A stretch of DNA of 64,000 bases from Deltaproteobacteria bacterium. Lineage in GTDB: Bacteria > Desulfobacterota > Desulfarculia > JACQYL01. This document shows, in pieces, positions 3,280 through 54,754 of the stretch; position 1 is the first letter of the stretch; every line of letters starts with the position of its first letter. The position numbers were made by a program, and so were the translations under genes. Under the pieces are notes generated by a model that did no database searches, was not told the DNA's origin, and saw nothing but the letters and a program-made list of their open reading frames with translations. The DNA lies in the NCBI GenBank assembly GCA_016208165.1, contig JACQYL010000001.1, positions 8,099 to 72,098 of the forward strand, read 5' to 3'.

Positions 3280-6039
3280 GTGAAACGAATGAAAGAAGAA
3301 AGGCAAGACAACGCAAAGGGAATAAGCCGGGACAAGGACAAATCGGACGATGGGCGGACGGCGTTTTTGGCCTCCATTGTCGAGTGCTCCGACGACGCTA
3401 TCATGGGCAAGACGATCGACGGGGTCATTACCAGTTGGAACCCTGCCGCCGAATTGATGTACGGTTATTCGGCCAAGGAAATCATCGGCAAGCCTATCTC
3501 CCTCCTCTTTTCTCCCGACCATCCTAGGGAGATGGACGAGATCCTCGCCAAAATCCGCAAGGGACGGCGTGTCGAGCACTACGAAACCCTTCGCAGGCGC
3601 AAAGACGGCTCCCTTATCCACGTTTCCCGAAACCTCGTGAGAGCTTCCTCCATTGCTCGCGACATCTCGGAACGTAAACGAATCGACGAGCAGTTACAGG
3701 CGACGTCCAAATACGCCAGGAGTCTGATCGAGGCTAGTCTCGATCCTCTGGTCACCATCAGCGCCGAGGGGAAAATTACCGATGTCAATGAAGCGACCGT
3801 GAAAGTGACGGGAGTCCCCCGGGACAAGCTCATTGGGACGGACTTCTCGGACTATTTTACCGAGCCGACGAACGCACGGGAGGGATATCGCCAGGTCTTT
3901 TCGCAAGGATTTGTCACGGACTATCCCCTTACCATCAGGCATCGGGATGGGCGACTCACGAACGTGCTTTACAACGCATCGGTGTACAACGACATGCAAG
4001 GCAACGTCCTTGGCGTGTTTGCCGCGGCGCGCGATGTCACGGCTCAGCGGCAGGCGGCGCAGTATGCCAGAAGCCTGATCGAGGCGAGCCTCGACCCGCT
4101 GGTCACCATCAGCCCGGAAGGAAAAATTACGGACGTCAATGAGGCCACCGTGAAGGTGACCGGCATCCTCCGGGACAGGCTGGTAGGAACGGACTTTTCG
4201 GACTATTTCACCGAGCCCGATAAGGCGCGGGAGGGATATCAGCAGGTCTTCCAGGAGGGCTTTGTCACGGACTACCCCCTGACCATCCGGCACAGGGATG
4301 GAAAACTGGTGGACGTTCTGTACAACGCCTCGGTCTACAAGGACGTCACCGGCAGTGTCCTCGGCGTCTTTGCAGCAGCCCGCGATGTCACGGCCGAGCG
4401 TCAGGCGGCCCAGTACGCCAGGAGCCTCATTGAGGCGAGCCTCGACCCCCTGGTCACCATCAGCCCGGAAGGAAAAATCACGGACGTCAACGAAGCGACC
4501 ATAAAGGTGACGGGTCTTCCCCGCGACGGGCTCATCGGCACGGACTTCTCGAACTATTTTACGGAACCCGAGAAGGCCAGGGAAGGGTACCTGCAGGTTT
4601 TCGAAAAGGGCTTTGTCACGGACTATGCCCTAACCATCCGGCACAGAGACGGGAAATTGGTGGACGTCCTATACAACGCCTCGGTCTACAAGGATATACG
4701 GGGCAACGTTCTCGGTGTCTTTGCCGCCGCCAGGGACGTGACGGACACCAAACGGGTCATGCGCGAGTTCTCGGAAACAAAGAACTTCCTGGATAACATC
4801 CTCGAGAGTTCGACCAAATACTCGATCATCGGAAAAGATCTGAACCACCGTATCCTCTCATGGAACGAGGGGGCCCGGCGCAACTACGGCTACACGGCGG
4901 AGCAGATCATAGGCAGAGACTCGAGCATCCTACACACGCCCGAGGACCTCGAGTCGGGCATCGTGGACAAGATGCTGGATATGGCCTATGAAAAAGGACT
5001 GGCCGAGGCCGAGTTTCAGCGGGTTCGCAAAGACGGCTCCCGTTTCATGGCGAGCGTGGTTGTTACACGCCGAAACGACCCTTCAGGTAATCCCCTCGGC
5101 TTTCTGCTCATGAGTAACGACATCTCGGAAAAGAAGGAGGCTGAGGAACAACTCCGCGAGGCTTCGCAGTATGCCAGGAGCCTGATCGAGGCCAGTCTCG
5201 ACCCCCTGGTCACCATCAGCCCCGAAGGAAAGATTACGGACGTCAATGAAGCGACCATCAAAGCTACCGGCTTTTCCAGGGACAAGCTTATCGGAACGGA
5301 CTTCTCGGACTACTTCACCGAGCCTGAGACTGCACGCAAGGGATATGAGCAGGTATTTCAAAAAGGCTTTGTCACCGACTACGCGCTGACTATCCGCCAC
5401 AATAACGGTCAGCTCACCGATGTTCTTTATAACGCCAGCGTGTATAAAGACACCCGCGAGAACGTGATTGGGGTTTTTGCCGCGGCGCGCGACGTCACGG
5501 CCCAACAGCAGACTTCACAATATGCCCGAAGTCTGATCGAATCATCCCTCGACCCGCTGGTGACGATCAGCATCGACGGCAAAATCACGGACGTCAACGA
5601 GGCTACGATTCGGGTCACGGGCGTCGGTCGCGACCAGTTGATCGGCACCGACTTTTCCAACTATTTCACGGAACCCGAAAAAGCTCGCGAAGGCTATCAA
5701 CAGGTATTTGCCAAGGGCTTTGTTACCCACTACGCGCTGACCATTCGCCACAACAACGGCCAACTCACCGATGTTCTTTACAACGCCAGCGTGTACAAAG
5801 ACACCCGAGAAAACGTGATAGGCGTCTTTGCCGCCGCGCGCGACGTAACGGCGCGTAAACGCGTCGAGGAGGAATTGTTCGAACAGCGTCGGAGAGAGCT
5901 GGACCGGCTGGCGGAGCTTGAAAAATTCCAGAAACTGACGGTGGGGCGCGAACTCAAGATGGTTGAACTGAAGAAGGAAATCGAGGATCTAAGAAAAATC
6001 AATGAAGAATATGAGCGCAAATTAAGCCAGAGGGTGTGA
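3280..6039 (+). CDS. multi-PAS domain signalling protein (seven PAS units, five of them near-identical tandem copies) with C-terminal coiled coil
   Basis: A 919-aa ORF. The block YARSLIEASLDPLVTIS.EGKITDVNEAT.KVTG...GTDFS.YFTEP..AREGY.QVF..GFVTDY.LTIRH..G.L.DVLYNASVY.D..GNV.GVFAAARDVT recurs five times with a 357-360 bp period, plus one divergent PAS unit (NFLDNILESS...). The C-terminus LTVGRELKMVELKKEIEDL is coiled coil. No kinase domain. Confidence 0.85.
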   Translation: MKRMKEERQDNAKGISRDKDKSDDGRTAFLASIVECSDDAIMGKTIDGVITSWNPAAELMYGYSAKEIIGKPISLLFSPDHPREMDEILAKIRKGRRVEHYETLRRRKDGSLIHVSRNLVRASSIARDISERKRIDEQLQATSKYARSLIEASLDPLVTISAEGKITDVNEATVKVTGVPRDKLIGTDFSDYFTEPTNAREGYRQVFSQGFVTDYPLTIRHRDGRLTNVLYNASVYNDMQGNVLGVFAAARDVTAQRQAAQYARSLIEASLDPLVTISPEGKITDVNEATVKVTGILRDRLVGTDFSDYFTEPDKAREGYQQVFQEGFVTDYPLTIRHRDGKLVDVLYNASVYKDVTGSVLGVFAAARDVTAERQAAQYARSLIEASLDPLVTISPEGKITDVNEATIKVTGLPRDGLIGTDFSNYFTEPEKAREGYLQVFEKGFVTDYALTIRHRDGKLVDVLYNASVYKDIRGNVLGVFAAARDVTDTKRVMREFSETKNFLDNILESSTKYSIIGKDLNHRILSWNEGARRNYGYTAEQIIGRDSSILHTPEDLESGIVDKMLDMAYEKGLAEAEFQRVRKDGSRFMASVVVTRRNDPSGNPLGFLLMSNDISEKKEAEEQLREASQYARSLIEASLDPLVTISPEGKITDVNEATIKATGFSRDKLIGTDFSDYFTEPETARKGYEQVFQKGFVTDYALTIRHNNGQLTDVLYNASVYKDTRENVIGVFAAARDVTAQQQTSQYARSLIESSLDPLVTISIDGKITDVNEATIRVTGVGRDQLIGTDFSNYFTEPEKAREGYQQVFAKGFVTHYALTIRHNNGQLTDVLYNASVYKDTRENVIGVFAAARDVTARKRVEEELFEQRRRELDRLAELEKFQKLTVGRELKMVELKKEIEDLRKINEEYERKLSQRV

Positions 6040-7775
6040 GAATGCTTTCCCGCAACGCCGGGCCGAAGGCCCAACCCGTGGAACTGATCCTGGATGCCAC
6101 GGATCAGGGGATCTACGTGCTGGATGCCGAAGGACGGTGCACACTGTTCAATCGGGCCGCTTCCGTCATGACCGGCTGGGGGTCCGAGGAGGGGTTGGGT
6201 CGAAGCATTCATGAGCTTATCCACCACACCCGGCCGGGTGGATCTCCTCATCCCCCTTCCGAGTGCTCGGTCCTCGGCGTGCTGCGCACGGGCGAAGGCG
6301 TTCACAAGGACAGCGAAATCTATTGGCGTAAGAACGGCACCCCGTTTCCCGTGGAGTATTCCTCATCACCGATTATCGAGGACGGCAGGACCATCGGTGC
6401 GGTGGTTGTCTTTATCGATATCACGGAACGCAAGAAGGTTGAAAAGGCCCTGAGCGATCGGGAAGAAGAACTGCGGCTCATCTCGGATGCCGGGCCGACG
6501 CTGATTTCCTATGTCGATTCCGGCGGCCTGTACCACTGGGTCAACAAGACGTACGCCGAATGGGTGGGCCTCTCGGCCAGGGAAATACGGGGACTGCACG
6601 TCCGTGAAGTGCTGGGCGAGACGGCCTGGCTGGCCGTTGAGCCATTCGCCGAGCGTGTTCTGGCCGGTGAAGCGGTCACCTACGAGCACCAGTTGCTGAT
6701 GCGGGATGGACCCCGCTGGGTGCGTGGAACCTGTACTCCCGACCTGAATGAAGCCGGTCAGGTGCGGGGATTTGTCGAACACGCGTTGGATATCGGGGAG
6801 CGCAAGGAAGCCGAAGAGACTTACCGTGCGACCTTGAACATCCTCGAAGATTTCGACGAAGAGAAGGCCAACCTGCAAAACCTCCAGCTGGCCACGATGA
6901 ACCTGCTGGAAGACCTCGATGAAGAGCGTCTTAATTTTCAACAGATCCAAAAGGCGACCTTGAATCTTCTGGAGGATATGAATGCCGAGCGGGAGAAATC
7001 GGATCAGACGCAGCGCGCCCTTATGAACATCCTGGATGATGTGGAAGTGGAACGCGTCAAAGCTGAACAGGCCAGGGCGCTCTTGGAATCCGTCAACAAG
7101 GAGCTGGAAGCTTTTTCCTACTCGGTTTCCCACGACTTGCGGTCGCCTTTGCGCGCCATCAGCGGATTCACCCAAGCATTGATGGAAGATTGGGCGCCGC
7201 TGCTGGACGATGATGGCAAGCGCTATCTCGCTCTCGTGCAGGAAAACGCCCATAGGATGGGTCAGCTCATCGACGACCTGTTGACGTTTTCGCGGCTCGG
7301 GCGGCAGACCATGACCGTGACCGAAATCGACATGGCCGACCTGGCGCAATCCGTGTATGATGAACTTGAAACCCGGACCTCGGGGCGCAACATCGCTTTC
7401 ACGATGGGTGCGATTCCGCCGGCCCAAGGAGACAAGGCGCTGATACGTCAAGTCCTGGTGAATCTGATTTCCAACGCCGTAAAGTTTACCCAAACCAGGG
7501 AACGGGCCCTGATCGAGTTCGGCTATGAAACCCAAGGGGGGGACGGTGCTTACTTCATTCGGGACAACGGAGTAGGCTTTGATATGCGGTACGTCGACAA
7601 GCTCTTCGGGGTGTTTCAGCGGCTGCACTCGGTGACGGAGTTCGAGGGCACCGGCGTGGGACTCGCGCTGGTGTACCGTATCGTCACCCGTCACGGCGGT
7701 TCGGTTTGGGCGGAGGGCCGTCTGGATCGAGGAGCCGCCTTTTACTTCAGCTTGCCGCAGAAAGGCACAAGATGA
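6036..7775 (+). CDS. PAS-domain sensor histidine kinase (HisKA + HATPase_c)
   Basis: A GTG/ATG start overlaps the stop of the upstream gene. Two PAS-like segments, then four 21-aa repeats (LN.LED.DEE...), an H-box FSYSVSHDLRSPLRAISGF and an ATPase G-box GTGVGLALVYRIVTRHGGSVWAEG. Confidence 0.9.
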   Translation: MRMLSRNAGPKAQPVELILDATDQGIYVLDAEGRCTLFNRAASVMTGWGSEEGLGRSIHELIHHTRPGGSPHPPSECSVLGVLRTGEGVHKDSEIYWRKNGTPFPVEYSSSPIIEDGRTIGAVVVFIDITERKKVEKALSDREEELRLISDAGPTLISYVDSGGLYHWVNKTYAEWVGLSAREIRGLHVREVLGETAWLAVEPFAERVLAGEAVTYEHQLLMRDGPRWVRGTCTPDLNEAGQVRGFVEHALDIGERKEAEETYRATLNILEDFDEEKANLQNLQLATMNLLEDLDEERLNFQQIQKATLNLLEDMNAEREKSDQTQRALMNILDDVEVERVKAEQARALLESVNKELEAFSYSVSHDLRSPLRAISGFTQALMEDWAPLLDDDGKRYLALVQENAHRMGQLIDDLLTFSRLGRQTMTVTEIDMADLAQSVYDELETRTSGRNIAFTMGAIPPAQGDKALIRQVLVNLISNAVKFTQTRERALIEFGYETQGGDGAYFIRDNGVGFDMRYVDKLFGVFQRLHSVTEFEGTGVGLALVYRIVTRHGGSVWAEGRLDRGAAFYFSLPQKGTR

Positions 7776-8212
7776 TCGATTGTGAAACGGAGATCGTTCT
7801 CGTGGAGGACAATCCGAACGATGCGGAACTCATTACGAGGGTGCTCAAGAAACACGATCTAGGCGACAATTTGGTCATCCTAAGGGACGGCGCGGAAGCC
7901 CTGTCGTTTCTTTTCGGGGAGGACGGCTGCGTCAAAGGATCCCTTGGCCCCCTCAGGTTGATTCTACTGGACTTGAAACTTCCGAAAGTCGATGGAACCG
8001 AGGTGCTGCGTCGAATCAAAACCGATGAGCGCACCAAGAGTATACCGGTCGTCATCCTGACTTCTTCATCGGAGCAGCGCGATCTCCATGATACTTACAA
8101 CTTGGGCGCCAACAGCTATGTGACAAAGCCGATCAAATTCACCGACTTCGCCCAAGTGGTGTCGGACGTGGGATCGTACTGGTTGCGTCGGAACAAATTA
8201 CCCGACCTGTAG
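7772..8212 (+). CDS. single-domain response regulator (CheY-like receiver)
   Basis: Internal Met MIDCETEIVLVEDNPNDAELI...LLDLKLP..DG...KPIKF overlaps the kinase stop (ATGA). Receiver-domain Asp pocket and conserved Lys are present. Confidence 0.8.
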   Translation: MIDCETEIVLVEDNPNDAELITRVLKKHDLGDNLVILRDGAEALSFLFGEDGCVKGSLGPLRLILLDLKLPKVDGTEVLRRIKTDERTKSIPVVILTSSSEQRDLHDTYNLGANSYVTKPIKFTDFAQVVSDVGSYWLRRNKLPDL

Positions 8213-8224
8213 CGGGGGATCCCA

Positions 8225-9904
8225 ATGAACGAGAAGCTCCGAATACTACTTCTCGAAGACAATTTCTCGGATGCAGAGCTGATTCAGCGCGAACTGCGCA
8301 AGTTCGGTTTCGATTTCGAGGTGCGCTGGGCCGAGAACAAGGCCGCTTTTCTTGACGCGTTGGATACGTTTGTGCCCGATATACTTTTAGCGGACTATGC
8401 TCTCCCAGGATTCGACGGCATGGCCGCCCTATCCCTGGCGCGGCGTCGCTTCGAGGATATACCGTTGATACTCGTGTCCGGAGCGATCGGCGAGGAAACG
8501 GCCATTGAGTGCCTCAAGGCCGGAGCGACCGACTATGTCTTAAAGCAGCGGTTGAAGCGGCTCGGGACAGTCATCCGGCGAGCACTTTTGGAATCCGAGC
8601 AATTGACCGAGAGAAAGCGGGCCGAGGAAGCCCTGCGGCAGGCCAAGGACGAGCTGGAACACAAGGTCCGGGAGCGAACGGCCGAGCTGGTTCGCACCGT
8701 CGACACGCTCCAGGAGGAAATCGCTCAGCGCCGTCGGGCCGAGGACGACGTGCGGCTGGCTAACGCACAACTGCAGGAGCGCGCGGTTCAATTGCGGGCT
8801 CTGGCCCGTCAACTGACCGTTGTCGAGAGCCGCGAGCGCAACCGAATAGCCAAGATCCTGCACGATCATCTGCAGCAACAGTTGGCATCCGCCAAGCTTC
8901 AGGTCACCTGGCTGGATCAGCTGACGGGTGACGATCTCGCCCTGGCTGCGGCGCGCATAGAAGATATTCTATCCGAGGCGATCAAGGTCTCACGCTCGCT
9001 CACCGCGGAACTGAGCCCTCCCATTTTGCACGAGGCGGGACTGGAGGCCGGGCTCGAATGGCTGGTCCGCCGGATGCTGGACGAGTACGCCCTTCGGGTC
9101 GATCTGACCGTCGACGACAGATCCGAGCTCGATGAGGACGTGAGAATCATGCTCTTCGAGTCGGTGCGCGAATTGCTCTTCAACGTGGTCAAGCATGCCA
9201 AGGTATCGTGGGCCGAGGTGCGGGTACAACCTGTGGATGAGACCGGCATGCTCATCACGGTCAGAGATGAAGGCGTCGGATTTGATCCCCTCCAATTAAA
9301 GCCGTCTGGAGATAATTATCCCGGATTTGGGTTGTTCACGATCCAAGAGCGGATCGACCTGATCGGCGGCCACTTGAAGATCTCGAGCGCCCTGGAAAAG
9401 GGTAGCTGTTTTTCGTTACTCGTGCCATACGCGCATCAGGCCGCCGCGCCGCTTTCCGGCGCGTCCTACCCCGAACCGGCGCAAACGTGCGCCGAAACGG
9501 TGCTCGAGGATGAGGCGCCGCTAATCCGTGTCTTGATTGCCGACGATCACGCCATTTTTCGCGACGGTATCGCCCGCCTGTTGAACCGTGAAAGGGATAT
9601 CCAGGTGGTCGCCGAGGCCGGCAGCGGGAGGGAAGCCGTTGAGTTGGCGCGTAAGACGGCGCCGGACCTGATCCTCATGGACATCTCGATGCCCGAGGTC
9701 AACGGCATCGAGGCCACCCGGATCATTTGCAGGGAGTCACCGGATATTCGGATCATCGGTTTTTCCATGTACGAAGACGAAGAGCGGTCTCTTGCGATTC
9801 TAAAGGCCGGCGCCGTTGGGCACAAGACCAAGGGCTGCGCGGCATCCGATCTGCTGGAAGCGATCCGCCGGTGCATGCGCGCGAAATCGGTTGGAGGACC
9901 GTAA
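8225..9904 (+). CDS. hybrid sensor kinase: REC - HisKA_3 - HATPase_c - REC
   Basis: N-terminal receiver (LLLEDNFSDAELI...LADYALPGFDG). NarX/LiaS-type H-box (ERNRIAKILHDHLQQQLASAKL), an ATPase domain, then a C-terminal NarL-like receiver (RVLIADDHAIFRDGIARLL...LILMDISMPEVNG) with no HTH. Confidence 0.85.
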   Translation: MNEKLRILLLEDNFSDAELIQRELRKFGFDFEVRWAENKAAFLDALDTFVPDILLADYALPGFDGMAALSLARRRFEDIPLILVSGAIGEETAIECLKAGATDYVLKQRLKRLGTVIRRALLESEQLTERKRAEEALRQAKDELEHKVRERTAELVRTVDTLQEEIAQRRRAEDDVRLANAQLQERAVQLRALARQLTVVESRERNRIAKILHDHLQQQLASAKLQVTWLDQLTGDDLALAAARIEDILSEAIKVSRSLTAELSPPILHEAGLEAGLEWLVRRMLDEYALRVDLTVDDRSELDEDVRIMLFESVRELLFNVVKHAKVSWAEVRVQPVDETGMLITVRDEGVGFDPLQLKPSGDNYPGFGLFTIQERIDLIGGHLKISSALEKGSCFSLLVPYAHQAAAPLSGASYPEPAQTCAETVLEDEAPLIRVLIADDHAIFRDGIARLLNRERDIQVVAEAGSGREAVELARKTAPDLILMDISMPEVNGIEATRIICRESPDIRIIGFSMYEDEERSLAILKAGAVGHKTKGCAASDLLEAIRRCMRAKSVGGP

Positions 9905-15448: not shown

Positions 15449-15778
15449 TCCTGTTCTATGGTATCTTACAAAAGTGGCCCTCCCTCAGAGGGCTACTGAC
15501 TGCTTTGAGGCGCCTTTAAATGGCGGATTCCTTCCCTATGGAGCGGCTCACAATTCTCCTCCACGGAATCCCTGAGGTTTCAGGTCTCTGAATATCGATT
15601 GAGCCGCACTGAATGAATTCTCCATCCCTCATCCCGGCGCCTCCCGGAAACCGTATGGGGTTTCCGACTCCACACAAAAGGCTTGAGAAATCGAGGCCTT
15701 GCTTCTTGTTGTAAGAATCGGCATTCAAGCTCGAAGATAAGCCGGCTTTCGGCCGGCGGTCTAATACCGGAACCGACG

Positions 15779-16349
15779 ATGGGCATAGGCACCAAGAAAG
15801 GCGACACGGGTCGCACGGGCCTTCTGAGAGGAGAAAGGGTTCCCAAGTACCATTTGGCCATCGAGTTGGGAGGAATCCTCGACGAAGCCAACTCGTTGTT
15901 AGGCTTGGCGAGGGCCTCTTTTCCCGAGAAGAAAGTCAAGCGGATCCTGCTCCAAGTTCAGAAAGGAGTTTGAAGAGGCGCTGTCTCTTCCTCCGGGCTT
16001 TGTGGCGTTCGGTCAGGATGAGACGCCATCCCATATGGATGTCGCCAGAACGGGTATTCGAAAATTAGAGCGCGCTGTCGTAAAGATGAAAGACGAGGAG
16101 ATGATTGAGAACTCCAATATTCTCAAATACCTCAATCGACTTTCTGATCTGCTGTTGCTACTTGCCGCCTTCGAAGAGAAGGACAGCGAGGAGAGGCGGA
16201 AAATCAAGGACACCTATTTTTCATCCCGATTGTTCGAGCCCGCTTTTCGTAAATTGTTTATAGTAGCAGGTTCCATCATTGGAGTATTAATAATTTCGAT
16301 TATTCTCATTCTCCTTTTTCACAAGCCTGAACAGGAGCTTTCTCATTAG
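15779..16349 (+). pseudogene. PduO-type ATP:cob(I)alamin adenosyltransferase, frameshifted and internally shortened
   Basis: The N-part (15779..15973, IGTKKGDTGRTGLLRGERVPKYHLAIELGGILDEANSLLGLA) and C-part (frame 0, ..LPPGFVAFGQ...VARTGIRKLERAVV...YLNRLSDLLLLLA) both match PduO/MMAB motifs but lie in different frames, switching near 15960-15975. About 30 aa of the central helix are missing, and there is an odd C-terminal TM helix. Confidence 0.5.
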
Positions 16350-16409: not shown

Positions 16410-17027
16410 TTGGGCGGTGAAGTCATGAGCAAGGGATCGAAAACAAAGGTCCTGTACACCTTCCTGGGAATGATTGGCGGCTTTGTACTTCTTCACCCTT
16501 ACACGATGATGGTGTACGCGCTGATGCATGTCCGCCGAGGTGCAGCCGGTGTGCATCCGGAATGGGGCGGGATCACTCTTCGGAGCCTCGTGGCCCTCAA
16601 GTCCACGATGTTGCCCATGGCATCCGCGTTCGTGATCTTTGGTGGGTTGATCGGCCTGTTGGTCGCCCTCGTTTTTGAAAGGAAAAGGAAAATGCTTCTG
16701 CTGGAAGTCGAAAATAATAAGAACAAGATTGCCATCCAAACGCTCAAGGAGGTGACGGTTACGATAGCGCACCATCTTTTGAACGCCAACATGATTATCG
16801 GAGGGAAGGTCAGGCAATGCCGCAGGCTGACCTCCGATCAAGAGATCCTTAAGGTCCTCGCGGATATGGAGGAGCAGGGACGGAAGATCGATTCGACCAT
16901 CAAGTCGTTGCGCGAAGTCACCGAAGTGAAGATCATGGATTACACCACGAGCGGTGCGGTGAAGATGATTGATATCGATGATGAGATTAAGGAGCGGATG
17001 GTTCAATCAGGGAAGCAGGTCGATTGA
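16410..17027 (+). CDS. hypothetical membrane protein with coiled-coil C-terminal half
   Basis: Two or three TM helices (LYTFLGMIGGFVLL..; MLPMASAFVIFGGLIGLLVALVF) then a charged coiled coil. No catalytic motifs. The antisense ORF 16287..17006 is rejected. Confidence 0.45.
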   Translation: MGGEVMSKGSKTKVLYTFLGMIGGFVLLHPYTMMVYALMHVRRGAAGVHPEWGGITLRSLVALKSTMLPMASAFVIFGGLIGLLVALVFERKRKMLLLEVENNKNKIAIQTLKEVTVTIAHHLLNANMIIGGKVRQCRRLTSDQEILKVLADMEEQGRKIDSTIKSLREVTEVKIMDYTTSGAVKMIDIDDEIKERMVQSGKQVD

Positions 17028-17184: not shown

Positions 17185-18243
17185 ATGACGAAGATACCGC
17201 CCGGAACCAAACGGATGTTGCTGGGCATACTTGTATTGGGGATAACCGGTCTCCATTACGGTACGGATATCGCATTGTCCCACCATCATATCTTCTATCG
17301 TGAACTGTACTATCTTCCTCTGGTCCTGGCGGCTTTCTGGTTCGGCGTACGAGGCGCCCTGATCACTTCGTCCATCATCGCTCTTCTGTATCTTCCGTTC
17401 ATTTGGATGAGTTGGGAAGGCTTTTCCGTCCAAGATTTCCACGCGCTGATCGGAATAGCGCTTTACTATGTTATGGCTCTTCTCGTGGGCATACTGAGAG
17501 ATCGAGAACAGGCCAAGCACAAGCGTCTCGTGGAAGCTGAGAGCCTGGCGGCCATCGGAAAGGCGCTTTCCAGCGTTGCTCACGATTTCAAGACCCCGCT
17601 CATTGCTATAGGAGGCTTTGCCAGGTGGGTCCAGAAAAGGATGAGAAACGATGACGCCTGCTACGACAAGCTCGATATCGTTATTGGAGAAGCCCGGCGA
17701 CTGGAGAATATGGTGAATGAGATGCTGGACTTCTCGAGGCCTTTGCAGTTGAGTCGATCCACAACAGACCTATCGGATATTGTAAAAAAAATAGTAACCA
17801 TATGTCTTGAAGCGGATGGCAAGCGAAGGGTGAAGATTGACATCGAATGTGCGAAAGATCTGCCCACCCTGTTCCTGGACCAAATGAGAATGGAGCAAGC
17901 ACTGATTAATTTAATGTGGAACGCCGTACAAGTTACGCCCGAGGAGGAGACGGTGACCATAAAGACCTCCTCGAGCAGCGGCTACGTAAGGATAGAAGTT
18001 AGGGATTCCGGTTGTGGGATACCCCCTGATCTCCGAGAGAAAGTCTTCTCTCCTTTCTTCACAACCAAAAAGGATGGGACCGGATTAGGGCTTCCTATCG
18101 CCAAAAAGATCATCGAAGCTCACGGAGGAAGGCTGGAAATGAACGATAATCCGGGAAAAGGAACCGTGTTTACGGCTTCTTTGCCTATCCAGACTCCGCA
18201 CGATAGAGCGTGTCGAGAAAATAGTAAGGACTCTGATTTGTGA
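17185..18243 (+). CDS. membrane sensor histidine kinase (KdpD-type transmembrane module + HisKA + HATPase_c)
   Basis: The N-terminal 4-TM module LHYGTD..HHIFYRELYYLPLVLAAFWFGVRGALITS resembles the membrane module of KdpD-type kinases (pattern match). H-box SSVAHDFKTPLIAIGGF. G-boxes DSGCGIP and GTGLGLPIAKKIIEAHGG. Confidence 0.85.
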   Translation: MTKIPPGTKRMLLGILVLGITGLHYGTDIALSHHHIFYRELYYLPLVLAAFWFGVRGALITSSIIALLYLPFIWMSWEGFSVQDFHALIGIALYYVMALLVGILRDREQAKHKRLVEAESLAAIGKALSSVAHDFKTPLIAIGGFARWVQKRMRNDDACYDKLDIVIGEARRLENMVNEMLDFSRPLQLSRSTTDLSDIVKKIVTICLEADGKRRVKIDIECAKDLPTLFLDQMRMEQALINLMWNAVQVTPEEETVTIKTSSSSGYVRIEVRDSGCGIPPDLREKVFSPFFTTKKDGTGLGLPIAKKIIEAHGGRLEMNDNPGKGTVFTASLPIQTPHDRACRENSKDSDL

Positions 18244-18369
18244 GACGGAATGTTGGACGCCGATATTGAACTGGTCTTTCTGACACGGGTAGCATTGTCT
18301 TGGGGGGGATAATTACAAGTTAATAGGGCCATACGTCTTTGCCAACCTATTCCATGGGAGATCGTATAT

Positions 18370-19212
18370 ATGTCCAATAAGATCAAAAAGATATCTGTTA
18401 TCTTCGTTCTCATAGTTATTGTTACCGTGCTTCACTATTCAACCTCTATGAAGAAAGCGCCATTGCATGTTATATACAGGGAATTGTATCTTATACCCAT
18501 TCTATTAGGCGCAGTTTGGTACGGTATGAAGGGAGGCTTAATAACCTCAATTGCGTCATCCATGGTATATATTCCATGCGCTATGATGAGTTCTTCTGGG
18601 GCGCCGTCGTTCTTTATGGTAAGTAACATAGCTGAAATAGCGACATTTAATATCGTCGCATTGATCGTGGGTAGGTACTCGGACTTGAGGCGAAAGTTTA
18701 TCTTGGGTGAAAAGCCGGAGAAGGGTACTCAGGAATATAAAGTCAATGAATTGAATGAGTTAGATGCTGGGCGAAACATATTGATATGCCTCGAACCATC
18801 GAACGACACATTGAAAGAGGTTGACTATGTGGCACGAATGCTTACCAAAAATGAACATACAAGGGCCACGTTATTGGGTATCTTTCGTGAGCCGAAAGCG
18901 GATTTATTTCCAAGTGAGAACGAGATGAACGCCTACAGAGCGGAGAAGGAAACAGCGTTGGAAGGGATATTGCTTAAGTCGGCGCAGATGTTGAAATCAT
19001 CGGGCCTTGGCGAGGACCAGGTGATCAGCAAGACCGTACGGTTTCAGCACGGTCATGCGGCGGATCAGATCGTCAGAGAACAGGAAAAAGGCCGATACGA
19101 CACCATTGTTGTCGCCGGCGCGAAGATGCCGAAGCAACAGGAATTCTTGTTCGGGAATCTGCCGGTAAAGGTGATTCGTTCTGTTGACTGTCCGGTAATT
19201 ACCGTCTATTAG
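18370..19212 (+). CDS. membrane protein: KdpD-type transmembrane module fused to a universal stress protein (UspA) domain
   Basis: The N-terminus LHYSTS..LHVIYRELYLIPILLGAVWYGMKGGLITS is homologous to the N-terminus of the upstream kinase. The C-terminus ...YDTIVVAGAKMP...VKVIRSVDCPVITV is a Usp fold. Confidence 0.72.
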   Translation: MSNKIKKISVIFVLIVIVTVLHYSTSMKKAPLHVIYRELYLIPILLGAVWYGMKGGLITSIASSMVYIPCAMMSSSGAPSFFMVSNIAEIATFNIVALIVGRYSDLRRKFILGEKPEKGTQEYKVNELNELDAGRNILICLEPSNDTLKEVDYVARMLTKNEHTRATLLGIFREPKADLFPSENEMNAYRAEKETALEGILLKSAQMLKSSGLGEDQVISKTVRFQHGHAADQIVREQEKGRYDTIVVAGAKMPKQQEFLFGNLPVKVIRSVDCPVITVY

Positions 19213-20216: not shown

Positions 20217-21555
20217 GTGGAGGCTATGCAGAAAATCACCATCGAAAGATCCGAAAGTGAGTGTTACACCGCGCATTCGGGTTTGTCCTTGGCGGGACTT
20301 TTGGTCAACCACCACACCGAGTTGTGTCGGAAGTTGGATTTGGCCGTGCCCCGGACGCCGAGCGTGTCTCATTCGGATGTGATGAAGAGCTATCTGGGAC
20401 TGCTTTGCGTCGGCAAGAGCGATTTCGAGGCCGTGGCCGGGATGCGCGGCGCAGCGACTGGTTCAGGGCGGCGCTGGGTATCCGGAAGGCGCCGTCGACA
20501 GAGACCTTGCGCCAGCGTTTTGACAAGAATGCGGGGGTGCTTACGGATATCGTCAACGCGAGCGTCATCGAGATGCTCCAAGGAGTGAAAGCGCCTGTGA
20601 CGGCGGGAGCCATGGGACACGCGCCGCTGGATATCGACGTGTTTCCCATGGACAACTCGGATACCAAGAAAGACGGAGTGTCCCGAACGTACAAAGGCTT
20701 TGACGGGTACGCACCCATAGCGGCATACCTTGGCGAGGAGGGTTGGTGCATAGGCCTCGATCTGCGCTAAGGCGGCCAAAACAGCCAGAATGGGTTTGTT
20801 CCTTTTCTGGATAGGGTGGTTCAACGGGCGCGGCAGTTGACGGAAAAAACGCTTTTGGTGCGCCTCGACGCGGCCCACTGCGCGTTGGAGACCTTGGTGA
20901 CGCTCCGGCAACACGGGAACGTCTCCTTTGTGATTAAGTGGAATCCCCGCAAGGAGGACCCGCCGGCCTGGCGTGACCGGCTGTTCGCCGAAGGCAAGGT
21001 GACCCAACCCAGGCCGGGCAAAAAGGTGGCCGTGATGACGGTGCATGAGACGCGTGAAGTCGAAGGGAAAGAGAAGCGATTCATGCGCGTGATGCGGGTG
21101 ACCGAACGCACCATGGATCGGGACGGCCAAATGCTGCTGGCGCCGCAGGTTAGGCTGGAAGGATGGTGAACCACAACCTGGTTCTGCCCGAGGAACGGAT
21201 CATCCGGTTGTACGGGGGGCATGGGACGAGCGAGCAGTTTCACAGCGAAATCAAGGCCGATCTCGATATGGAGCGGCTGCCGCCCGGCAAGTTCGCTACT
21301 AATGGCTTGGTGCTGACCTGTGCGGGCATGGTCCATAATATGGTGCGTATTATCGGTCAGTTCGGGCTTCTCGGCGACACCTCGCCGGTGTGCCACCCGG
21401 CCAAACGCCGCCGCATTCGTACGGTGATTCAGGAACTCATGACAGTCGCGGGCCGACTCATCCGGACAGGACGTGGCTTGATCTCGCGCCTCGGTCCCCA
21501 CTGTCCGGCCTATGAAGCGTTTACGGATGTGCATATGCGGCTGCCTCCGGGATAA
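20217..21555 (+). mobile_element. IS1380-family transposase gene relic (frameshifted, with in-frame stop)
   Basis: Four successive ORF fragments in frames 0, 2, 2 and 1 (20217, 20261, 20816, 21163) together span about 446 codons and carry IS1380-type motifs (DNSDTKKDGVSRTYKGFDGYAPI; LLVRLDAAH; LYGGHGTSEQFHSEIKADLDMERLPPGKFATNGLVL). There is a nonsense codon at 20768-20770 and shifts near 20260 and 21165. No clear terminal inverted repeats found. Confidence 0.7.
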
Positions 21556-22007: not shown

Positions 22008-22427
22008 ATGAAAAAGGCTGTTTTAGTATCCGCATTGGTGTTGTGTTCCATGTTGATGTCCTATCCGGCGTTCGCCGGCCAGTGGGAAGGAACGATTCAG
22101 GGGCTCATGTGCACCCTCGAGAAGAAGCCCTGCCCGGTAGGATTTGAGGACGCCTTGACAGCCATGGAACCGAACTTCGTCCTCGTGACGTCGGACGGAA
22201 GTTGGTACATGTTGCCGAATATGGATCGGGCGGTATTGGCTCGCCGTATCAACCAAGATGTCATGGTGGTGGGGGAGAAGAATCCGGAGTACAACTCGAT
22301 TAAAGTGGACGAGCTGAAAGCGAAAGCCGACGGATCTTGGACAACCGTCTGGTCTACCGAGATGGAAAAGGAGCTCAGGAAGATGTTCAAGTGGGGTCTC
22401 GGTGGTTCTCCCGCCCATCCCAAATGA
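22008..22427 (+). CDS. secreted protein, paralog A of a two-member family (conserved MC...C-P motif)
   Basis: Signal peptide MKKAVLVSALVLCSMLMSYPAFAGQ. Strong RBS (gaaggaggttgcgATG). Shares AGQ.EGT....MC......CP...ED...A.......V.TD.G.Y..L.N..R..LAR.......GE....YN.I..D.L.A...G.W...W.T.ME with the ORF at 31293..31727 on the opposite strand. Confidence 0.7.
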   Translation: MKKAVLVSALVLCSMLMSYPAFAGQWEGTIQGLMCTLEKKPCPVGFEDALTAMEPNFVLVTSDGSWYMLPNMDRAVLARRINQDVMVVGEKNPEYNSIKVDELKAKADGSWTTVWSTEMEKELRKMFKWGLGGSPAHPK

Positions 22428-22603: not shown

Positions 22604-24508
22604 GTGCTTATTGTGGCGAATAGTCTCCAACAACGTTTGATGTTTTTCGTGCTGATTCCGATTGCGTTTCTGCTGTTTCTGATAGGAAGCATCGGCTTTC
22701 TGTACGCGCGAAACACCATGCTTTCAGAATGGCGGGAAGCCGCCGTTTTGAAGCTTCAACGGGGCGCTCACCAGATGGATATGAGGTTGAGCCGGCCTCT
22801 GGAATGGATACGGATGTTCCAGCAGTCCGGCGAGCTGCTCCAGACATCGATTCAGGATTGGCTCATTTCCCGGCTGCAACAACTCGGGGGAGTGGAAAGC
22901 GCCCATATCGAATGGTTCCCTGAGTACGGGGGCGCAGGTGGTACTTCAGGGGATCACATGGGTGCGGGAACGGGCAAGGACATGAATACGGACATGAAGC
23001 CGTTTCAGGAGGGTGGAGTTGCCCGAATAACCCCGCCAAAATTGGATTCCACCACCGGTAAGAAAACGGTGACCATCGAGTCGAACTTACTGGATAGGGA
23101 CAACCGGACCGTGGGTCAGCTTCAAGTGATCATCAGCTTCGAGTATCTGCTGGAGGGTGTGCTCTCTTCGAGTTGGACCGAAGGAGACAAGGCCTGCCTG
23201 GTCGACGAAAATGGCGCTTATCTGGCTCATACGGCCGCCATCGACGCGGGCCGGCGTCGTCTGGGCGGCGCCGGCGATTCCTTGGAATTAGCCATTTTGG
23301 AGGCCCTGAAAGACCGGCCGTTCGGGACGGTACTAGGCCGTGGACATCCTCCCGGCGAGGTGGCAGGGTTCTGCAGGCTGCAAAATGCCCCATGGACCAT
23401 CGTCGTATTTGCTCCAGGGGATAAAATTCTTGGGCCCATCGTACGATTTCGTACCTATTTCTTCGGCTTCGGAATTATTTGTATCGGCATCGTGCTGATG
23501 CTCATAAGACTGACAACCGCGGGAACGGTCCGCTCGATCCAGGAGATCTCCGCTTCCGCAAAGCAGGTCGCCTCGGGAGACTACGGAAGAACGCTTTCCG
23601 TCAGAAGTCGAGACGAGGTGGGGCAACTGACCAGGAGCTTTAACACCATGATCGCGGAGTTGAGGCAAAAGGAACGGATTCGCAATATGTTCGGACGCTA
23701 CGTGGACAAGGAGGTGGCCGAGGAACTGCTTCGGGGGCCGGAATCGACCCGGCTGGGAGGAGAAAAGCGCGAGGTGGTGATCCTGATGTCCGATTTGCGG
23801 GGGTTCACGCCACTGTGTGAGGCCATGAGTCCGGAAATTGTAATCGGGGTCCTGAATCGCTATTTTTCATATATTATCGGAATCATCCATCGATACAAAG
23901 GTATTATCATCGATTTTGTTGGGGATGCCGTCCTCGTCTTTTTCGACCCGATAACCTCGACCGTCGACGAGAAGGCCAAGGATGCGGTGCAATGCGGTCT
24001 TGAAATGCAGTCCGCCATGGAACGGGTCAACGACGAAAATCAGGGGCTCGGAATACCCCGGTTGAGCATGGGGATCGGGATCCACTCCGGCGAGGTGATC
24101 GTGGGAAACATAGGGTCCCAGTCCAGAGCCAAGTACGGCATTGTGGGCGCGCCCGTGAACCTCACGCAACGGATCCAGTCCGTTGCGGAAGGGGGGGAAG
24201 TGGTGGTCTCCGAATCGGTTCGCCGGCGAACCGGGGAAGCTTTCCGGGTTCTCCGTAGCTTCAAGACCCGGCTCAAAGGAGTGCACGATCAAGTAACCCT
24301 ACACGTTGTCGATGGATCGGTAGAAGTGGGCCATTCACGAGACGGTGGGGAACATCCCGTTCAACATGATCACAGGCCTCCGGAGAGAGACGGACAAAAG
24401 AAATCCTCTGTCCTCGAAGGGGGGAAGGATCAAGAACGGTTTCAGCAGGCGGATCGAAGGGATCCTGTTCCTTCTCCCCGTCGAGGACAGGGAGAAGGAA
24501 CAGGATGA
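22604..24508 (+). CDS. membrane-bound class III adenylate/guanylate cyclase with periplasmic sensor region and HAMP domain
   Basis: TM helix, an approx 250-aa extracytoplasmic region, a second TM, then HAMP (VASGDYGRTLSVRSRDEVGQLTRSFNTMIAEL) and a CYC domain (VVILMSDLRGFTPL...IDFVGDAVLVFF...GIGIHSGEVIVGNIG). The last approx 70 codons are low complexity; the true stop may be earlier. Confidence 0.85.
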   Translation: MLIVANSLQQRLMFFVLIPIAFLLFLIGSIGFLYARNTMLSEWREAAVLKLQRGAHQMDMRLSRPLEWIRMFQQSGELLQTSIQDWLISRLQQLGGVESAHIEWFPEYGGAGGTSGDHMGAGTGKDMNTDMKPFQEGGVARITPPKLDSTTGKKTVTIESNLLDRDNRTVGQLQVIISFEYLLEGVLSSSWTEGDKACLVDENGAYLAHTAAIDAGRRRLGGAGDSLELAILEALKDRPFGTVLGRGHPPGEVAGFCRLQNAPWTIVVFAPGDKILGPIVRFRTYFFGFGIICIGIVLMLIRLTTAGTVRSIQEISASAKQVASGDYGRTLSVRSRDEVGQLTRSFNTMIAELRQKERIRNMFGRYVDKEVAEELLRGPESTRLGGEKREVVILMSDLRGFTPLCEAMSPEIVIGVLNRYFSYIIGIIHRYKGIIIDFVGDAVLVFFDPITSTVDEKAKDAVQCGLEMQSAMERVNDENQGLGIPRLSMGIGIHSGEVIVGNIGSQSRAKYGIVGAPVNLTQRIQSVAEGGEVVVSESVRRRTGEAFRVLRSFKTRLKGVHDQVTLHVVDGSVEVGHSRDGGEHPVQHDHRPPERDGQKKSSVLEGGKDQERFQQADRRDPVPSPRRGQGEGTG

Positions 24509-31292: not shown

Positions 31293-31727
31293 CTACTTGT
31301 CGCTTTTATGTTGATTCTGTTCTTGTCGCGCTTTTTTTTCGATATCATTTGGGATTTGTCTGATGGTTTCTTCCATTTGAGTGGTCCAAGTCTTCACCCA
31401 TTCACCTTCGTCGTACGCTTCCAAGCTGTCAGCGTATATGGCATTGTACTTGCCTTTTACGTCCCCTGTTATACGGACGGTTCCAAACATATGTCGCGCG
31501 AGTATACGATTCGAAACATTCAAAACAAAATAGTACTTCCCTTCATCCGTGTACACGATAATATGTTCCGCAGTGGCTGCAACAGGGTCTTCCTGGTTGA
31601 TAGGGCAGGATATACCGTAAATGACACACATAAACGGTTTCACGGTTCCTTCGATTTGTCCCGCCAATGCGGGCATACATCCCACTAACAAAACACACGT
31701 CATCAAGGCAATCAGGCTTTTTTTCAA
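31293..31727 (-). CDS. secreted protein, paralog B of the MC...C-P family
   Basis: Signal peptide MKKSLIALMTCVLLVGCMPALAGQ, then the same conserved positions as 22008..22427. It has a longer Lys/Gln-rich tail. Confidence 0.7.
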   Translation of the reverse strand: MKKSLIALMTCVLLVGCMPALAGQIEGTVKPFMCVIYGISCPINQEDPVAATAEHIIVYTDEGKYYFVLNVSNRILARHMFGTVRITGDVKGKYNAIYADSLEAYDEGEWVKTWTTQMEETIRQIPNDIEKKARQEQNQHKSDK

Positions 31728-52787: not shown

Positions 52788-53852
52788 TCAGGGTTCCAAA
52801 TTCAGCGAAGAGGCATGCTTGCGATAGAGCCCCCGGAACTGGTGGTAGGTGAGGCCCAGAAGCTCGGCCGCTTTATGCTGGCGGAAGCGGGCCTCGAGGA
52901 GGGCCCGCTGAATCAGTCGAATTTCAAGATCGGCCACCTGCCGGGTCAACGGGGTGTCCAGGGCTAGGGCGGGTTCAAGCGGAGACTGGACCGCCGAATC
53001 AGCGGTCTGGCTCTGTTCGGAAGGGGGCGCCAAAACGGATTCAGGGAACGGATCGAAGACGATTTCTTTAATGGATTCAGAGTCGGATCGGTAAACGGCG
53101 CGTTCCACTACGTTCTTGAGTTCGCGTACATTTCCGGGCCAGGAATAGGCCTCAAGGGAGATCATGGCCTCTCGAGTGAACACCGGCAGGGCGTCGTGTC
53201 CCAATTCCTTTGCGATGCGCGAAGCGAAGTGACGCGCGAGAAGAGACACATCTCCCGCCCTGTTCCTGAGCGCCGGCAACAGCAGTACTTCAAAGGAGAG
53301 CCGGTCGAGGAGGTCGCGTTTGAACCGGCCTTCGCGCGCCAGGGCCGGCAAGTCCGCATTGGTGGCCCCGATGATGCGGACATCGACCATTACGACGTCC
53401 GACCCTCCAACCCGTTCAAAAGTGCCGTATTCCACGACGCGAAGAATTTTCTCCTGGGCTTCAAGGGGAATATTGCCGATTTCGTCGAGGAAAAGCGTAC
53501 CCCCGTGAGCGGCCTCGAAGCGCCCTATTCTTCGTTTGACGGCGCCGGTAAACGCCCCCGGCTCATACCCGAAGAGCTCGGATTCGATGAGGCCCGGAGA
53601 GAGGGCCGCGCAATTCAGAGCAAGCAGGGGACTCCTCCAACGGTGGGAAAGATAATGGAGACGGGAGGCGGCCAGTTCCTTACCGGTTCCTCTTTCTCCG
53701 ATGATGAGGATTGGGCGGTCCACACGTGCGGCCCGAGATAGACGCTCCTGGAAATCCAGAAAGGATTCCGACTCACCAAGGCCTTCCTGGGAAGCGAGGG
53801 CGGGCATGTCGGTCTGGTTGCGAGTGAAGGATGACATGGTGTATATTACCAT
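52788..53852 (-). CDS. pspF: sigma-54-dependent activator PspF (AAA+ domain + HTH, no receiver)
   Basis: GERGTGKELAASRLHYLS...ESELFGYEPGAFTGA (GAFTGA motif). C-terminal HTH. Divergent from pspA. Confidence 0.85.
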   Translation of the reverse strand: MVIYTMSSFTRNQTDMPALASQEGLGESESFLDFQERLSRAARVDRPILIIGERGTGKELAASRLHYLSHRWRSPLLALNCAALSPGLIESELFGYEPGAFTGAVKRRIGRFEAAHGGTLFLDEIGNIPLEAQEKILRVVEYGTFERVGGSDVVMVDVRIIGATNADLPALAREGRFKRDLLDRLSFEVLLLPALRNRAGDVSLLARHFASRIAKELGHDALPVFTREAMISLEAYSWPGNVRELKNVVERAVYRSDSESIKEIVFDPFPESVLAPPSEQSQTADSAVQSPLEPALALDTPLTRQVADLEIRLIQRALLEARFRQHKAAELLGLTYHQFRGLYRKHASSLNLEP

Positions 53853-53969
53853 ATATAGGCTAAAATAGCCAGTATTTTGCTAAAACAGCCGGATTACGTT
53901 CAGCCGGCGGGTCTCTGATTCACGTACAACTCGTTGATATTGCTTAGCTAGTATGGATTTTGCCCAAGT

Positions 53970-53984
53970 TGGCCCGGTTGTTGC
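53970..53984 (+). promoter_or_regulatory. sigma-54 promoter (TGGCCCG-N4-TTGC) upstream of pspA
   Basis: -24 GG / -12 GC elements with correct spacing, about 40 bp upstream of the pspA ATG. Confidence 0.5.
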
Positions 53985-54023
53985 CCACTTTCATGGCAAC
54001 CAAGCCACAAGAGAGGTGACATC

Positions 54024-54707
54024 ATGGGCGTTTTCAGCAGAGTTCGAGATATCGTGAGTTCAAACATCAATGCCATGCTGGACCGGGCGGAAGACCCGGA
54101 GAAGCTGGTCCGGCTCATGATCCAGGAGATGGAGGACACCCTGGTGGAAATCAAAGCCTCGTGCGCAGGGGCTATGGCAGCCAAAAAACAAACGCAGCGG
54201 GCTTTGGAAGACCACCGGGAGCGGACCCGTTCGTGGGAGCAGAGGGCGGAGCTGGCCGTTGGAAAGGGGCGCGAGGACCTGGCCAGAGAGGCGTTGCTGG
54301 AAAAACGCCGGTACCTGCAGCGCGCGGAGACCCTGGAGGACGAAATGGGTCAGACGCAGGCCATCATTGCCCAATACCAGGAACAGATCGCCCAGCTCGA
54401 GGAGAAGCTGGCCACGGCCAGAGAAAAGCAGCGTCTGCTCGTTCAGCGACACGTTCATGCCCGTGATCGGAAACGAGCCCAGGAAGACATTCGGCGCTTC
54501 GAAACTTCCGATGTGTTCCTGAGGTTCGAGCAGTTCGAGAACCGCATCGAGCGCATGGAAGCCGAGGCGGAGATGGTCAATCTCGGTCGCACTCCGTCGC
54601 TGGACGACGAGTTTGCCCGTTTAGCGGAAGGCGAAGAGATCGAGCGAGAACTCGAGACGTTGAAAGCCAAATGTGGACGAAGGGGCGAAGAACACCGACC
54701 GATGTGA
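54024..54707 (+). CDS. pspA: phage shock protein A
   Basis: MGVFSRVRDIVSSNINAMLDRAEDPEKLVRLMIQEMEDTL is the classic PspA/IM30 N-terminus. An all-coiled-coil 227 aa. Confidence 0.9.
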   Translation: MGVFSRVRDIVSSNINAMLDRAEDPEKLVRLMIQEMEDTLVEIKASCAGAMAAKKQTQRALEDHRERTRSWEQRAELAVGKGREDLAREALLEKRRYLQRAETLEDEMGQTQAIIAQYQEQIAQLEEKLATAREKQRLLVQRHVHARDRKRAQEDIRRFETSDVFLRFEQFENRIERMEAEAEMVNLGRTPSLDDEFARLAEGEEIERELETLKAKCGRRGEEHRPM

Positions 54708-54754
54708 TCGGGATGAAACGGACAAAGCTGAGTTGATCTGCATATGGAGGAAAG

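Follow-up and report, generated by a model that had tools for sequence, protein, structure and literature searches.

In KdpD, the K+ sensor kinase of E. coli, a Usp domain and a four-helix DUF4118 membrane region are joined to a HisKA/HATPase_c kinase core, and the protein has a second, serine-kinase activity (PMC11018627). Split KdpDs occur naturally; in genuine cases one protein carries KdpD-N and the Usp domain and the other the transmembrane (TM), GAF, DHp and CA domains, and the membrane domain is not duplicated (PMC11018627). Here we describe two adjacent genes in a 64,000-nucleotide stretch of contig JACQYL010000001.1 from a Deltaproteobacteria bacterium (the window, 64 kb), one for a sensor histidine kinase and the other for a membrane-anchored protein with a universal stress protein (USP) fold, termed membrane-Usp. 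Each protein begins with a four-helix membrane module, and the likeness to KdpD led an earlier note on this DNA to regard the pair as a split KdpD. The analysis points instead to two separate signalling proteins from independent families, and we propose that membrane-Usp probably serves as a facultative accessory to partner kinases.

Several other described systems bear on the locus. A survey of USP architectures records DUF4118 only in the context of KdpD and lists Usp–protein kinase fusions (PMC3673472, Fig. 2 legend). Such fusions are a precedent of the Rosetta-stone type for a link between Usp domains and protein kinases, and they are matched in relatives of the locus by the pairing of membrane-Usp with p331, a soluble protein of ∼331 amino acids; there, however, the two are separate genes, and p331 is very divergent, falls below the Pfam cut-off and is absent from the window. 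The sets of p331, membrane-Usp and histidine kinase found in relatives are also a loose parallel to the serine-kinase activity of KdpD, although p331 has a protein-kinase fold and not the Walker A/B fold. Stand-alone and accessory USPs, such as UspF, MJ0577, the cAMP-binding MSMEG_3811 and TeaD of the TeaABC transporter, share their fold with the C-terminal domain of membrane-Usp, which differs from them in being anchored by an N-terminal module of sensor type and in having the nucleotide motif replaced by [ST]-K-x-x-E-F-L-F-G-[DN]. There are precedents for USPs that help to regulate membrane proteins and kinases, for example UspC acting on KdpD, and small membrane proteins such as MgrB or SafA modulate the sensor kinase PhoQ by intramembrane contacts. 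The latter are short peptides unrelated to the membrane domain of the kinase, whereas membrane-Usp carries a homologue of the kinase sensor module together with a full cytoplasmic domain. The best matches to the kinase core are in the ZraS/ZraR/ZraP and AtoS/AtoC systems, and the genes around relatives of the kinase include those for ZraP-like Metal_resist, SHOCT, efflux and sigma54-type regulator proteins. ZraS has a periplasmic sensor domain, whereas the kinase described here takes its input through a compact membrane module and has scarcely any periplasmic part.

A homologous membrane module in two proteins

The kinase gene precedes the membrane-Usp gene on the same strand (Table 1). The sequence GGGAGA, nine nucleotides 5′ of the ATG at 18370, is a plausible ribosome-binding site. 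Sites found in a promoter and terminator scan of the 15.4–20.3 kb region were no commoner than in shuffled sequence, none of them lay in the spacer between the genes, and co-transcription of the pair is plausible from the sequence.

The N-termini of the two proteins, which the earlier note had seen to align, are indeed homologous. BLASTP aligns residues 15–106 of the kinase with residues 13–105 of membrane-Usp at 36 of 96 identities (38%), 61% positives and E=3e-18, and the motif quoted in that note agrees with the residues conserved across both families. A tblastn search for a third copy over the 64 kb window finds only these two. The Pfam DUF4118 profile matches both proteins in register, with 25.2 bits for the kinase and 12.3 bits for membrane-Usp, both below the 28.4 cut-off. 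Relatives that exceed the cut-off exist, as do precomputed PF13493 matches; one such relative, encoded at L013:3041-4030 on the reverse strand, has the module fused to an HD-GYP domain (HD_5) and scores 30.3 bits. The cluster at L013 thus has three outputs (kinase, HD-GYP and Usp) on one sensor module.

Hydropathy analysis gives four hydrophobic segments for the kinase and three, with one weaker, for membrane-Usp. An AlphaFold2 (AF2) model of membrane-Usp built on 17 family sequences (mean pLDDT 80.8) has helices at residues 2–24, 30–39, 41–73 and 80–110, followed by the disordered linker and an alpha/beta domain. In a set of 121 kinases and 38 Usp proteins, the residues conserved at ≥80% in both families are H33/H35 in Usp and kinase numbering, L39, Y40, P43 (100% in both), G52, P69 and G101; H22/H24 is conserved at 97% and 79%. 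The two conserved histidines lie near the TM1–TM2 junction and are accompanied by invariant proline and glycine. W77, F80, S81 and D84 in the second loop are conserved additionally in the kinases.

When a neighbour-joining tree is drawn from 98 aligned positions of the module, the modules of the kinases form one clade, within which ∼205-residue proteins consisting only of the module and HisKA are nested, and the modules of the Usp proteins form separate lineages. At the paired loci (the window, L009, L013, L025 and L037) the neighbouring modules always fall in different clades. Local duplication or gene conversion as the origin of the modules is ruled out by this tree. Judged by sequence, both modules are old, separate lineages and not copies retained after a fission. 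Hence the earlier description of separate adjacent genes, each with a module, stands, whereas its reading of the modules as copies kept from a split KdpD does not.

The kinase and its family

Pfam scores for the kinase are 41.7 bits for HisKA, against a cut-off of 26.9, and 99.3 bits for HATPase_c, against 26.4, and none of its H (H133), N, G1, F and G2 boxes is disrupted (motifs at 133, 242, 274, 288 and 298). Its core scores 226.9 bits against the AtoS model of NCBIfam and 188 bits against that of ZraS, with KdpD outside the top 25 models; these matches span the core only and fall short of the equivalog cut-offs of 646 and 479, respectively. Among structures in the PDB, ZraS (9jfj) matches the core with 140 bits and KdpD (6lgq) with 62.7 bits at about rank 28. 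By these sequence features the kinase is an intact, ordinary member of a family of the ZraS/AtoS class and not an orthologue of ZraS or AtoS. A word-indexed search gave ∼5773 relatives, typically of 335–340 residues, ∼50% identical and of the same architecture.

Kinases of this family are commonly found close to genes for metal handling. In the locus with a 76% identical orthologue (L001), the kinase gene follows a YHS gene and precedes an OEP–CusB–RND efflux operon, and there is no Usp gene. The kinase relative in L003 adjoins an MFP gene and an RND pump, that in L004 adjoins a P-type ATPase, and that in L005 has no notable neighbours. Sigma54-type response regulators follow kinase relatives in L013, L015, L019 and L049–L051. 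No sigma54 (NtrC-family) response regulator adjoins the kinase in the window, where the sole sigma54 AAA+ protein is encoded at 52788-53852 beside PspA and receiver domains are found only at ∼7787-9889. Conservation from the kinase side was assessed with 28 module-bearing loci that were chosen independently of Usp (232 kb), 27 of which are kinase loci. These 28 loci include pump components (7), P-type ATPases (7), multicopper oxidases (3), SHOCT proteins (8) and sigma54 response regulators (6), and their sole p331 match is in L048, beside an apparent membrane-Usp gene that ends at the contig end. There is thus a strong link between the kinase family and loci for metals and efflux, as well as NtrC-type regulators. 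Judging from the gene neighbourhood of the family, the kinase most likely responds to a cue from metals or the envelope that it perceives in the membrane.

Two further observations were made in these loci. The ∼205-residue proteins with the module and HisKA and no ATPase domain (P0002–P0011; L006:5001-5618 and L007) have their genes downstream of those for Metal_resist (ZraP-like), SHOCT and a protein of 52 residues, with a PAS kinase and a sigma54 response regulator encoded close by. The RND gene downstream of the kinase orthologue in L001 (12583-15885) is called as four consecutive ACR_tran fragments, which means either that the gene is a pseudogene or that the long-read assembly contains frameshift errors.

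A family of membrane-anchored Usp proteins

The C-terminal domain of membrane-Usp matches the Usp profile (PF00582) with 43.9 bits, above the cut-off of 24. The top Foldseek matches to this domain are all USPs, with a probability of 1.0 and target-normalised TM-scores of 0.6–0.78. The nearest folds are UspF (4r2l), TeaD (3hgm), MSMEG_3811 (5ahw) and MJ0577 (1mjh), and the Usp domain of KdpD (7ji4) ranks 38th. The ATP-binding motif G-x2-G-x9-G-(S/T) is not preserved: the window protein has A-G-A-K...G-N when aligned to MJ0577, in a loop that is of low confidence in the AF2 model, and the motif is degenerate throughout the family, in the form G-x2-[K/P/M]-x9-G-[D/N/S]. The position of the nucleotide motif of MJ0577 is occupied by a C-terminal family signature, [ST]-K-x-x-E-F-L-F-G-[DN]...R...P, whose first position is proline in the window and in L025.

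An exhaustive HMMER search of 1.84 billion representative sequences identified ∼30 clusters (clustered at 50% identity) of proteins of 262–300 residues that align end to end at 22–39% identity, and a profile search added 16 more distant members. The HMMER search overturned the impression that membrane-Usp is an orphan, which had come from a word-indexed search in which the query, an NCBI MAG protein named ‘universal stress protein’, was alone in matching over its full length. The window protein belongs to the family by its end-to-end alignment, its module and its C-terminal signature. P43, G52, G101, G212 and R270 are invariant in alignments of 29 (A2) and 17 (A4) sequences, and the module of the family conserves H22, H33, R37, L39, Y40, P43, G52, G56, N86 and G101.

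One lineage (L008:5569-6810 and L020:1562-2725, P0132-like) has a cysteine-rich N-terminal extension of ∼100 residues (CWEYKKCGREPGG...C..C..C), which is possibly a metal- or redox-binding domain to judge by its residues. Literature searches found no description of a DUF4118–Usp protein outside KdpD. The family of membrane-anchored module–Usp proteins, and its pairing with a divergent protein-kinase-like gene, appear to be undescribed in the literature searched.

Conserved neighbours of membrane-Usp

Loci with full-length membrane-Usp homologues were collected by a genome scan (L008–L013), a metagenome scan (L020–L038) and exact look-ups (L056–L059), the scans being made with a 9-sequence subset of the 29-sequence alignment. 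Together with the window they represent 15 lineages at 60% identity, 14 of them informative. A p331 gene is directly adjacent, upstream or downstream, in ∼8 of the 14, and a histidine kinase with the same module, or a remnant of one, lies within 3 kb in ∼7, in varied orders and orientations; 12 of the 14 have p331, the module-kinase or both. In L009 (Solidesulfovibrio) the membrane-Usp gene is followed by the kinase and then by a Ser/Thr kinase and PP2C. L013 contains the kinase with a sigma54 response regulator, the module–HD-GYP protein, p331 and membrane-Usp, while L025 has an intact kinase, p331 and membrane-Usp. A kinase fragment lies upstream in the L027–L033 group, in the form of a C-terminal remnant in L029 and L031. 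In L037 an intact kinase is divergent from membrane-Usp, beside a multicopper oxidase and a P-type ATPase, and in L038 the kinase within 3 kb is fragmented.

The p331 proteins, exemplified by L008:6937-7932, have homologues in L010, L013, L020–L022, L025–L028, L030, L032–L033, L048 and L056–L059. All ten aligned members match the Pfam Pkinase profile below the cut-off (best 9e-6), and the p331 profile matches the kinase-like domain of RNase L (9e-9) and MSK1 (2e-8) in the PDB. The beta3 lysine, an HGD catalytic loop and a W-I-D-F-D motif are invariant. By sequence criteria p331 is a soluble protein-kinase-like family without the membrane module, very divergent from other kinases but itself highly conserved, and it is the best-conserved neighbour of membrane-Usp. 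No tblastn match to p331 was found in the window at E<0.01. A serine or threonine in the first position of the C-terminal signature was considered as a phospho-acceptor for p331 that had been lost to proline in the window for want of p331. This was rejected since L025 has the proline with p331 adjacent, and it is also contradicted by L034, L037 and L038, which carry Ser/Thr without p331.

Metal-related genes are found at membrane-Usp loci as well: Nramp and OEP/MFP/RND genes in L011, an HMA- and YHS-containing P-type ATPase in L012, and flanking YHS and SCO1-like proteins in L056 and L057.

The association of the two genes is real: seen from the Usp genes it recurs, seen from the kinase genes it is rare, and it is facultative rather than obligate. 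The earlier note had taken the adjacency as a sign of a joint sensor. Conservation of the pair as neighbours holds from the Usp side (∼7 of 14 lineages) and fails from the kinase side (0 of 27 loci), as well as among close relatives, where the 76% kinase orthologue is without a Usp gene and a 91% orthologue (L002) has a truncated one.

Comparison with KdpD

The split-KdpD architecture that the earlier note proposed is refuted on five of six defining features of KdpD; for the membrane domain there is a likeness at the superfamily level, with profile scores below the Pfam cut-off. The module profile is co-linear with residues 405–495 of E. coli KdpD, at a weak 10.6 bits, but KdpD is without the signature His, Arg-Glu and Pro residues of the module. 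KdpD-N (PF02702, a Walker A/B atypical serine kinase) has no match in either protein at E≤1, and tblastn with residues 1–395 of E. coli KdpD finds no match in the window. There is no Pfam match to a GAF domain, HisKA starting ∼20 residues past the last membrane helix, and the GAF region of KdpD is unmatched in the window. The domain order is also different, with the membrane module followed by the Usp domain here and KdpD-N, Usp, TM, GAF, DHp and CA in KdpD. The kinase core is nearer to ZraS than to KdpD in the structural matches (140 versus 62.7 bits) and is 25% identical to the core of E. coli KdpD, and the Usp domain has no sequence match to the Usp region of E. coli KdpD (E=2.5) besides its distant rank by fold. 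As the earlier note had remarked for the immediate vicinity, no KdpE-like regulator or kdpFABC genes accompany the pair, and this is borne out across the 64 kb window: kdpA, kdpB and kdpC have no match, and the only matches to KdpE are generic receiver domains at 7787-9889.

Interpretation of the gene pair

We consider it probable, on balance, that membrane-Usp is a facultative accessory sensor or adaptor that reads the cue of the module and signals through its Usp domain to a partner kinase. The ligand, physical contacts and direction of signalling in this proposal are what we infer throughout from the observed homology, domain content, family sizes and co-location statistics. The pair would consist of two separate signalling proteins, each with an anciently diverged copy of a four-helix module of the DUF4118 superfamily. 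The kinase would be a membrane sensor in which the conserved histidines of the module are candidate ligand or proton sensors. Membrane-Usp would perceive the cue of that kinase with its own copy of the module and relay it, by way of the cytoplasmic Usp domain, to a partner kinase. The partner would be p331 where that protein is present and possibly the adjacent histidine kinase in the window, where it could only be the latter because p331 is absent. The coupling would be facultative, since most kinases of the family are without a Usp partner and the window lineage shows decay.

Several observations weigh against this proposal. The two closest kinase orthologues (L001 and L002) are without an intact membrane-Usp gene, so that the kinase evidently works without membrane-Usp, and none of the 27 independently sampled module-kinase loci has a membrane-Usp neighbour. 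A metal-sensing role has two bases only, the gene neighbourhood and the two conserved histidines, and the tblastn counts of RND and ATPase genes mix heavy-metal and other subtypes, Pfam typing having been made only for L001, L012 and L037. Many of the metagenomic contigs are short, and a missing neighbour is therefore often uninformative. Finally, residues 41–73 of membrane-Usp are a single continuous helix in the AF2 model, so its four-pass topology is inferred.

A different arrangement, close to that suggested in the earlier note, is a heteromeric sensor in which membrane-Usp and the kinase form a mixed complex through their homologous modules and the Usp domain influences the kinase in trans, whether as activator, scaffold or dominant-negative subunit. 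The presence of a homologous module in both proteins, the repeated adjacency of the two families in several orders and orientations (the window, L009, L013, L025, L037 and L038) and the clustering of three module proteins in L013 are consistent with such a complex. We regard it as unlikely, however, because the modules are just 38% identical, belong to separate old clades and show no sign of co-variation by locus. Half of the Usp lineages have no such kinase nearby, the kinase loci are without Usp neighbours, and one of the partners is lost or truncated in the close relatives L002, L029, L031 and L038. Moreover, the best-conserved partner of the family, p331, is soluble and has no membrane module.

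Alternatively, the two genes could be coincidental neighbours, that is, unrelated sensors in a rearranged stress island that share a widely used membrane module. The region has been rearranged: it contains a transposase remnant, its adenosyltransferase gene is split, and it carries an insertion when compared with L001. The closest kinase orthologues are without an intact Usp gene, and the module occurs in fusions with many outputs (kinase, HisKA-only, HD-GYP and Usp). Yet module-kinases lie near membrane-Usp in about half of the independent lineages, far above what chance would give with a few paralogues per genome; the varied gene order argues against simple inheritance, and the spacer in the window has no terminator-like site. 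We consider mere coincidence decidedly improbable. Fission of a KdpD-type sensor, with the membrane domain retained in each half, can be dismissed almost entirely in view of the comparison with KdpD and of the membership of both proteins in independent, many-member families.

To return to the accessory role that we favour, the outcome for the window is mostly deflationary: its kinase is an ordinary one and the analogy with KdpD fails. The wider interest lies in a compact DUF4118-like module with two conserved histidines that recurs with four or more kinds of output (kinase, HisKA-only, Usp and HD-GYP). The strong association of this module with genes for metal efflux and oxidation leads to a testable hypothesis for DUF4118-type sensing outside KdpD, and the pairing of membrane-Usp with p331 would give Usp domains a concrete signalling partner. 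Clustered genes with one sensor module are also a tractable system for the question of mixed assemblies.

More tentatively, and with considerable doubt, membrane-Usp, p331 and the histidine kinase with the same module could constitute an undescribed multi-component membrane signalling system in the Desulfobacterota and allied lineages. If so, proteins that join the shared module to a kinase, Usp or HD-GYP output would assemble with one another or together sense a cue from metals or the envelope. Histidine phosphorylation would then be coupled with phosphorylation of the Ser/Thr type, and the several genes would jointly be a convergent counterpart of KdpD, itself a tandem serine/histidine kinase. 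The window, with only the kinase and membrane-Usp, would be a reduced version of this system.

Synteny and decay in the window lineage

Table 1. Features of the kinase and membrane-Usp region of the window, by position in the stretch.
Feature	Position	Strand	Remarks
Secreted Gly/His/Met-rich protein, 163 aa	14621..15112	+	Syntenic with L001
YHS-domain (metal-binding) protein, 81 aa	15203..15448	+	Directly 5′ of kinase orthologue in L001
PduO-type cobalamin adenosyltransferase, split open reading frames	15683-15973 and 16002-16349	+	
p205, 205-aa membrane protein	16410..17027	+	5′ of kinase; no Pfam match
Sensor histidine kinase, 352 aa	17185..18243	+	Open reading frame, Pfam, motif check
Kinase membrane module, N-terminal, four-helix	17215-17502 (∼aa 11-106)	+	
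Kinase HisKA and HATPase_c	aa 125-185 and aa 232-336		HisKA directly after module
Intergenic spacer, 126 nt	18244..18369	+	
Segment missing from L002, 700 bp	18285..18984	+	Spacer, whole module, first half of Usp domain
Membrane-anchored Usp protein, 280 aa	18370..19212	+	
Usp-protein membrane module	18391-18687 (aa 8-106)	+	Homologous to kinase module
Usp-protein disordered linker and cytoplasmic Usp-fold domain	aa 114-128 and aa 130-280		
Predicted lipoprotein, 186 aa	19254..19814	+	LVAC lipobox; sequence read directly
DDE transposase remnants (DDE_Tnp_1_4 C-terminus)	20217..21555	+	Frameshifted overlapping open reading frames
dCache-HAMP adenylate/guanylate cyclase	22604..24508	+	Synteny anchor

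The window is syntenic with L001 upstream of the pair, from an aminotransferase through ATP synthase I/A/C and Rex to the 163-residue protein and the YHS protein. The adenosyltransferase block and the 205-residue gene are missing from L001. The adenosyltransferase of L002 is a single gene of 244 residues with 107 extra bases at the junction relative to the window, and the split window copy is therefore probably a pseudogene. The p205 gene is kept in L002 (1205-1821, called as two open reading frames), and a 46% identical homologue lies directly 3′ of membrane-Usp in L038 (6811-7431). A weak DHp-like stretch in p205 (TIAHHLL) resembles TVAHELNTPL of the proteins with only the module and HisKA (pairwise E=0.004). 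Pfam finds no HisKA match in p205 that would mark it as a DHp-only kinase fragment.

L002 is the closest relative of the window, with a 91% identical kinase, and it retains a 63-residue, in-frame C-terminal stub of the Usp protein after stop codons. From this stub and the missing segment (Table 1) it follows that the window and L002 descend from an ancestor with a membrane-Usp gene, and that this gene was later inactivated in L002. The dN/dS ratios between the window and L002 are 0.46 for the stub (13 substitutions, few sites), 0.30 for the kinase and 0.24 for the lipoprotein. The 186-residue lipoprotein, which sits at the place taken by the p331 gene in relatives, is 91% identical in L002, has no family match and is rich in histidine (DHPH, GDHH and a C-terminal PHHRH); from its composition it may be a periplasmic metal-binding protein. 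The order in L010 is membrane-Usp, p331 and a homologue of the window cyclase, and the window interval that corresponds in position to p331 of L010 contains the His-rich lipoprotein, the transposase remnants and a small secreted protein instead. The remnants point to an insertion sequence that has decayed in the interval from the membrane-Usp gene to the cyclase. With p331 missing, a transposase remnant present and the Usp gene truncated in L002, the window holds a reduced and possibly decaying example, and its copy of membrane-Usp looks dispensable.

Some features lie apart from the pair. Two similar small secreted proteins with a Cys motif, GxIxG..C......CP, are encoded at 22008-22427 (+) and 31293-31727 (−), the first of which is syntenic with L001. 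A dense sensory cluster at 3280-9904 (+) encodes a 919-residue protein with seven PAS domains, a PAS–PAS histidine kinase and a REC–HisKA_3–HATPase–REC hybrid kinase, and includes a short receiver-like open reading frame at ∼7787-8134. At 52788-55401 a sigma54 activator without a receiver-domain match is divergent from a PspA-like gene and two open reading frames for small membrane proteins, which we take, from the sequence rather than a profile search, to be an envelope stress locus of the phage-shock type.

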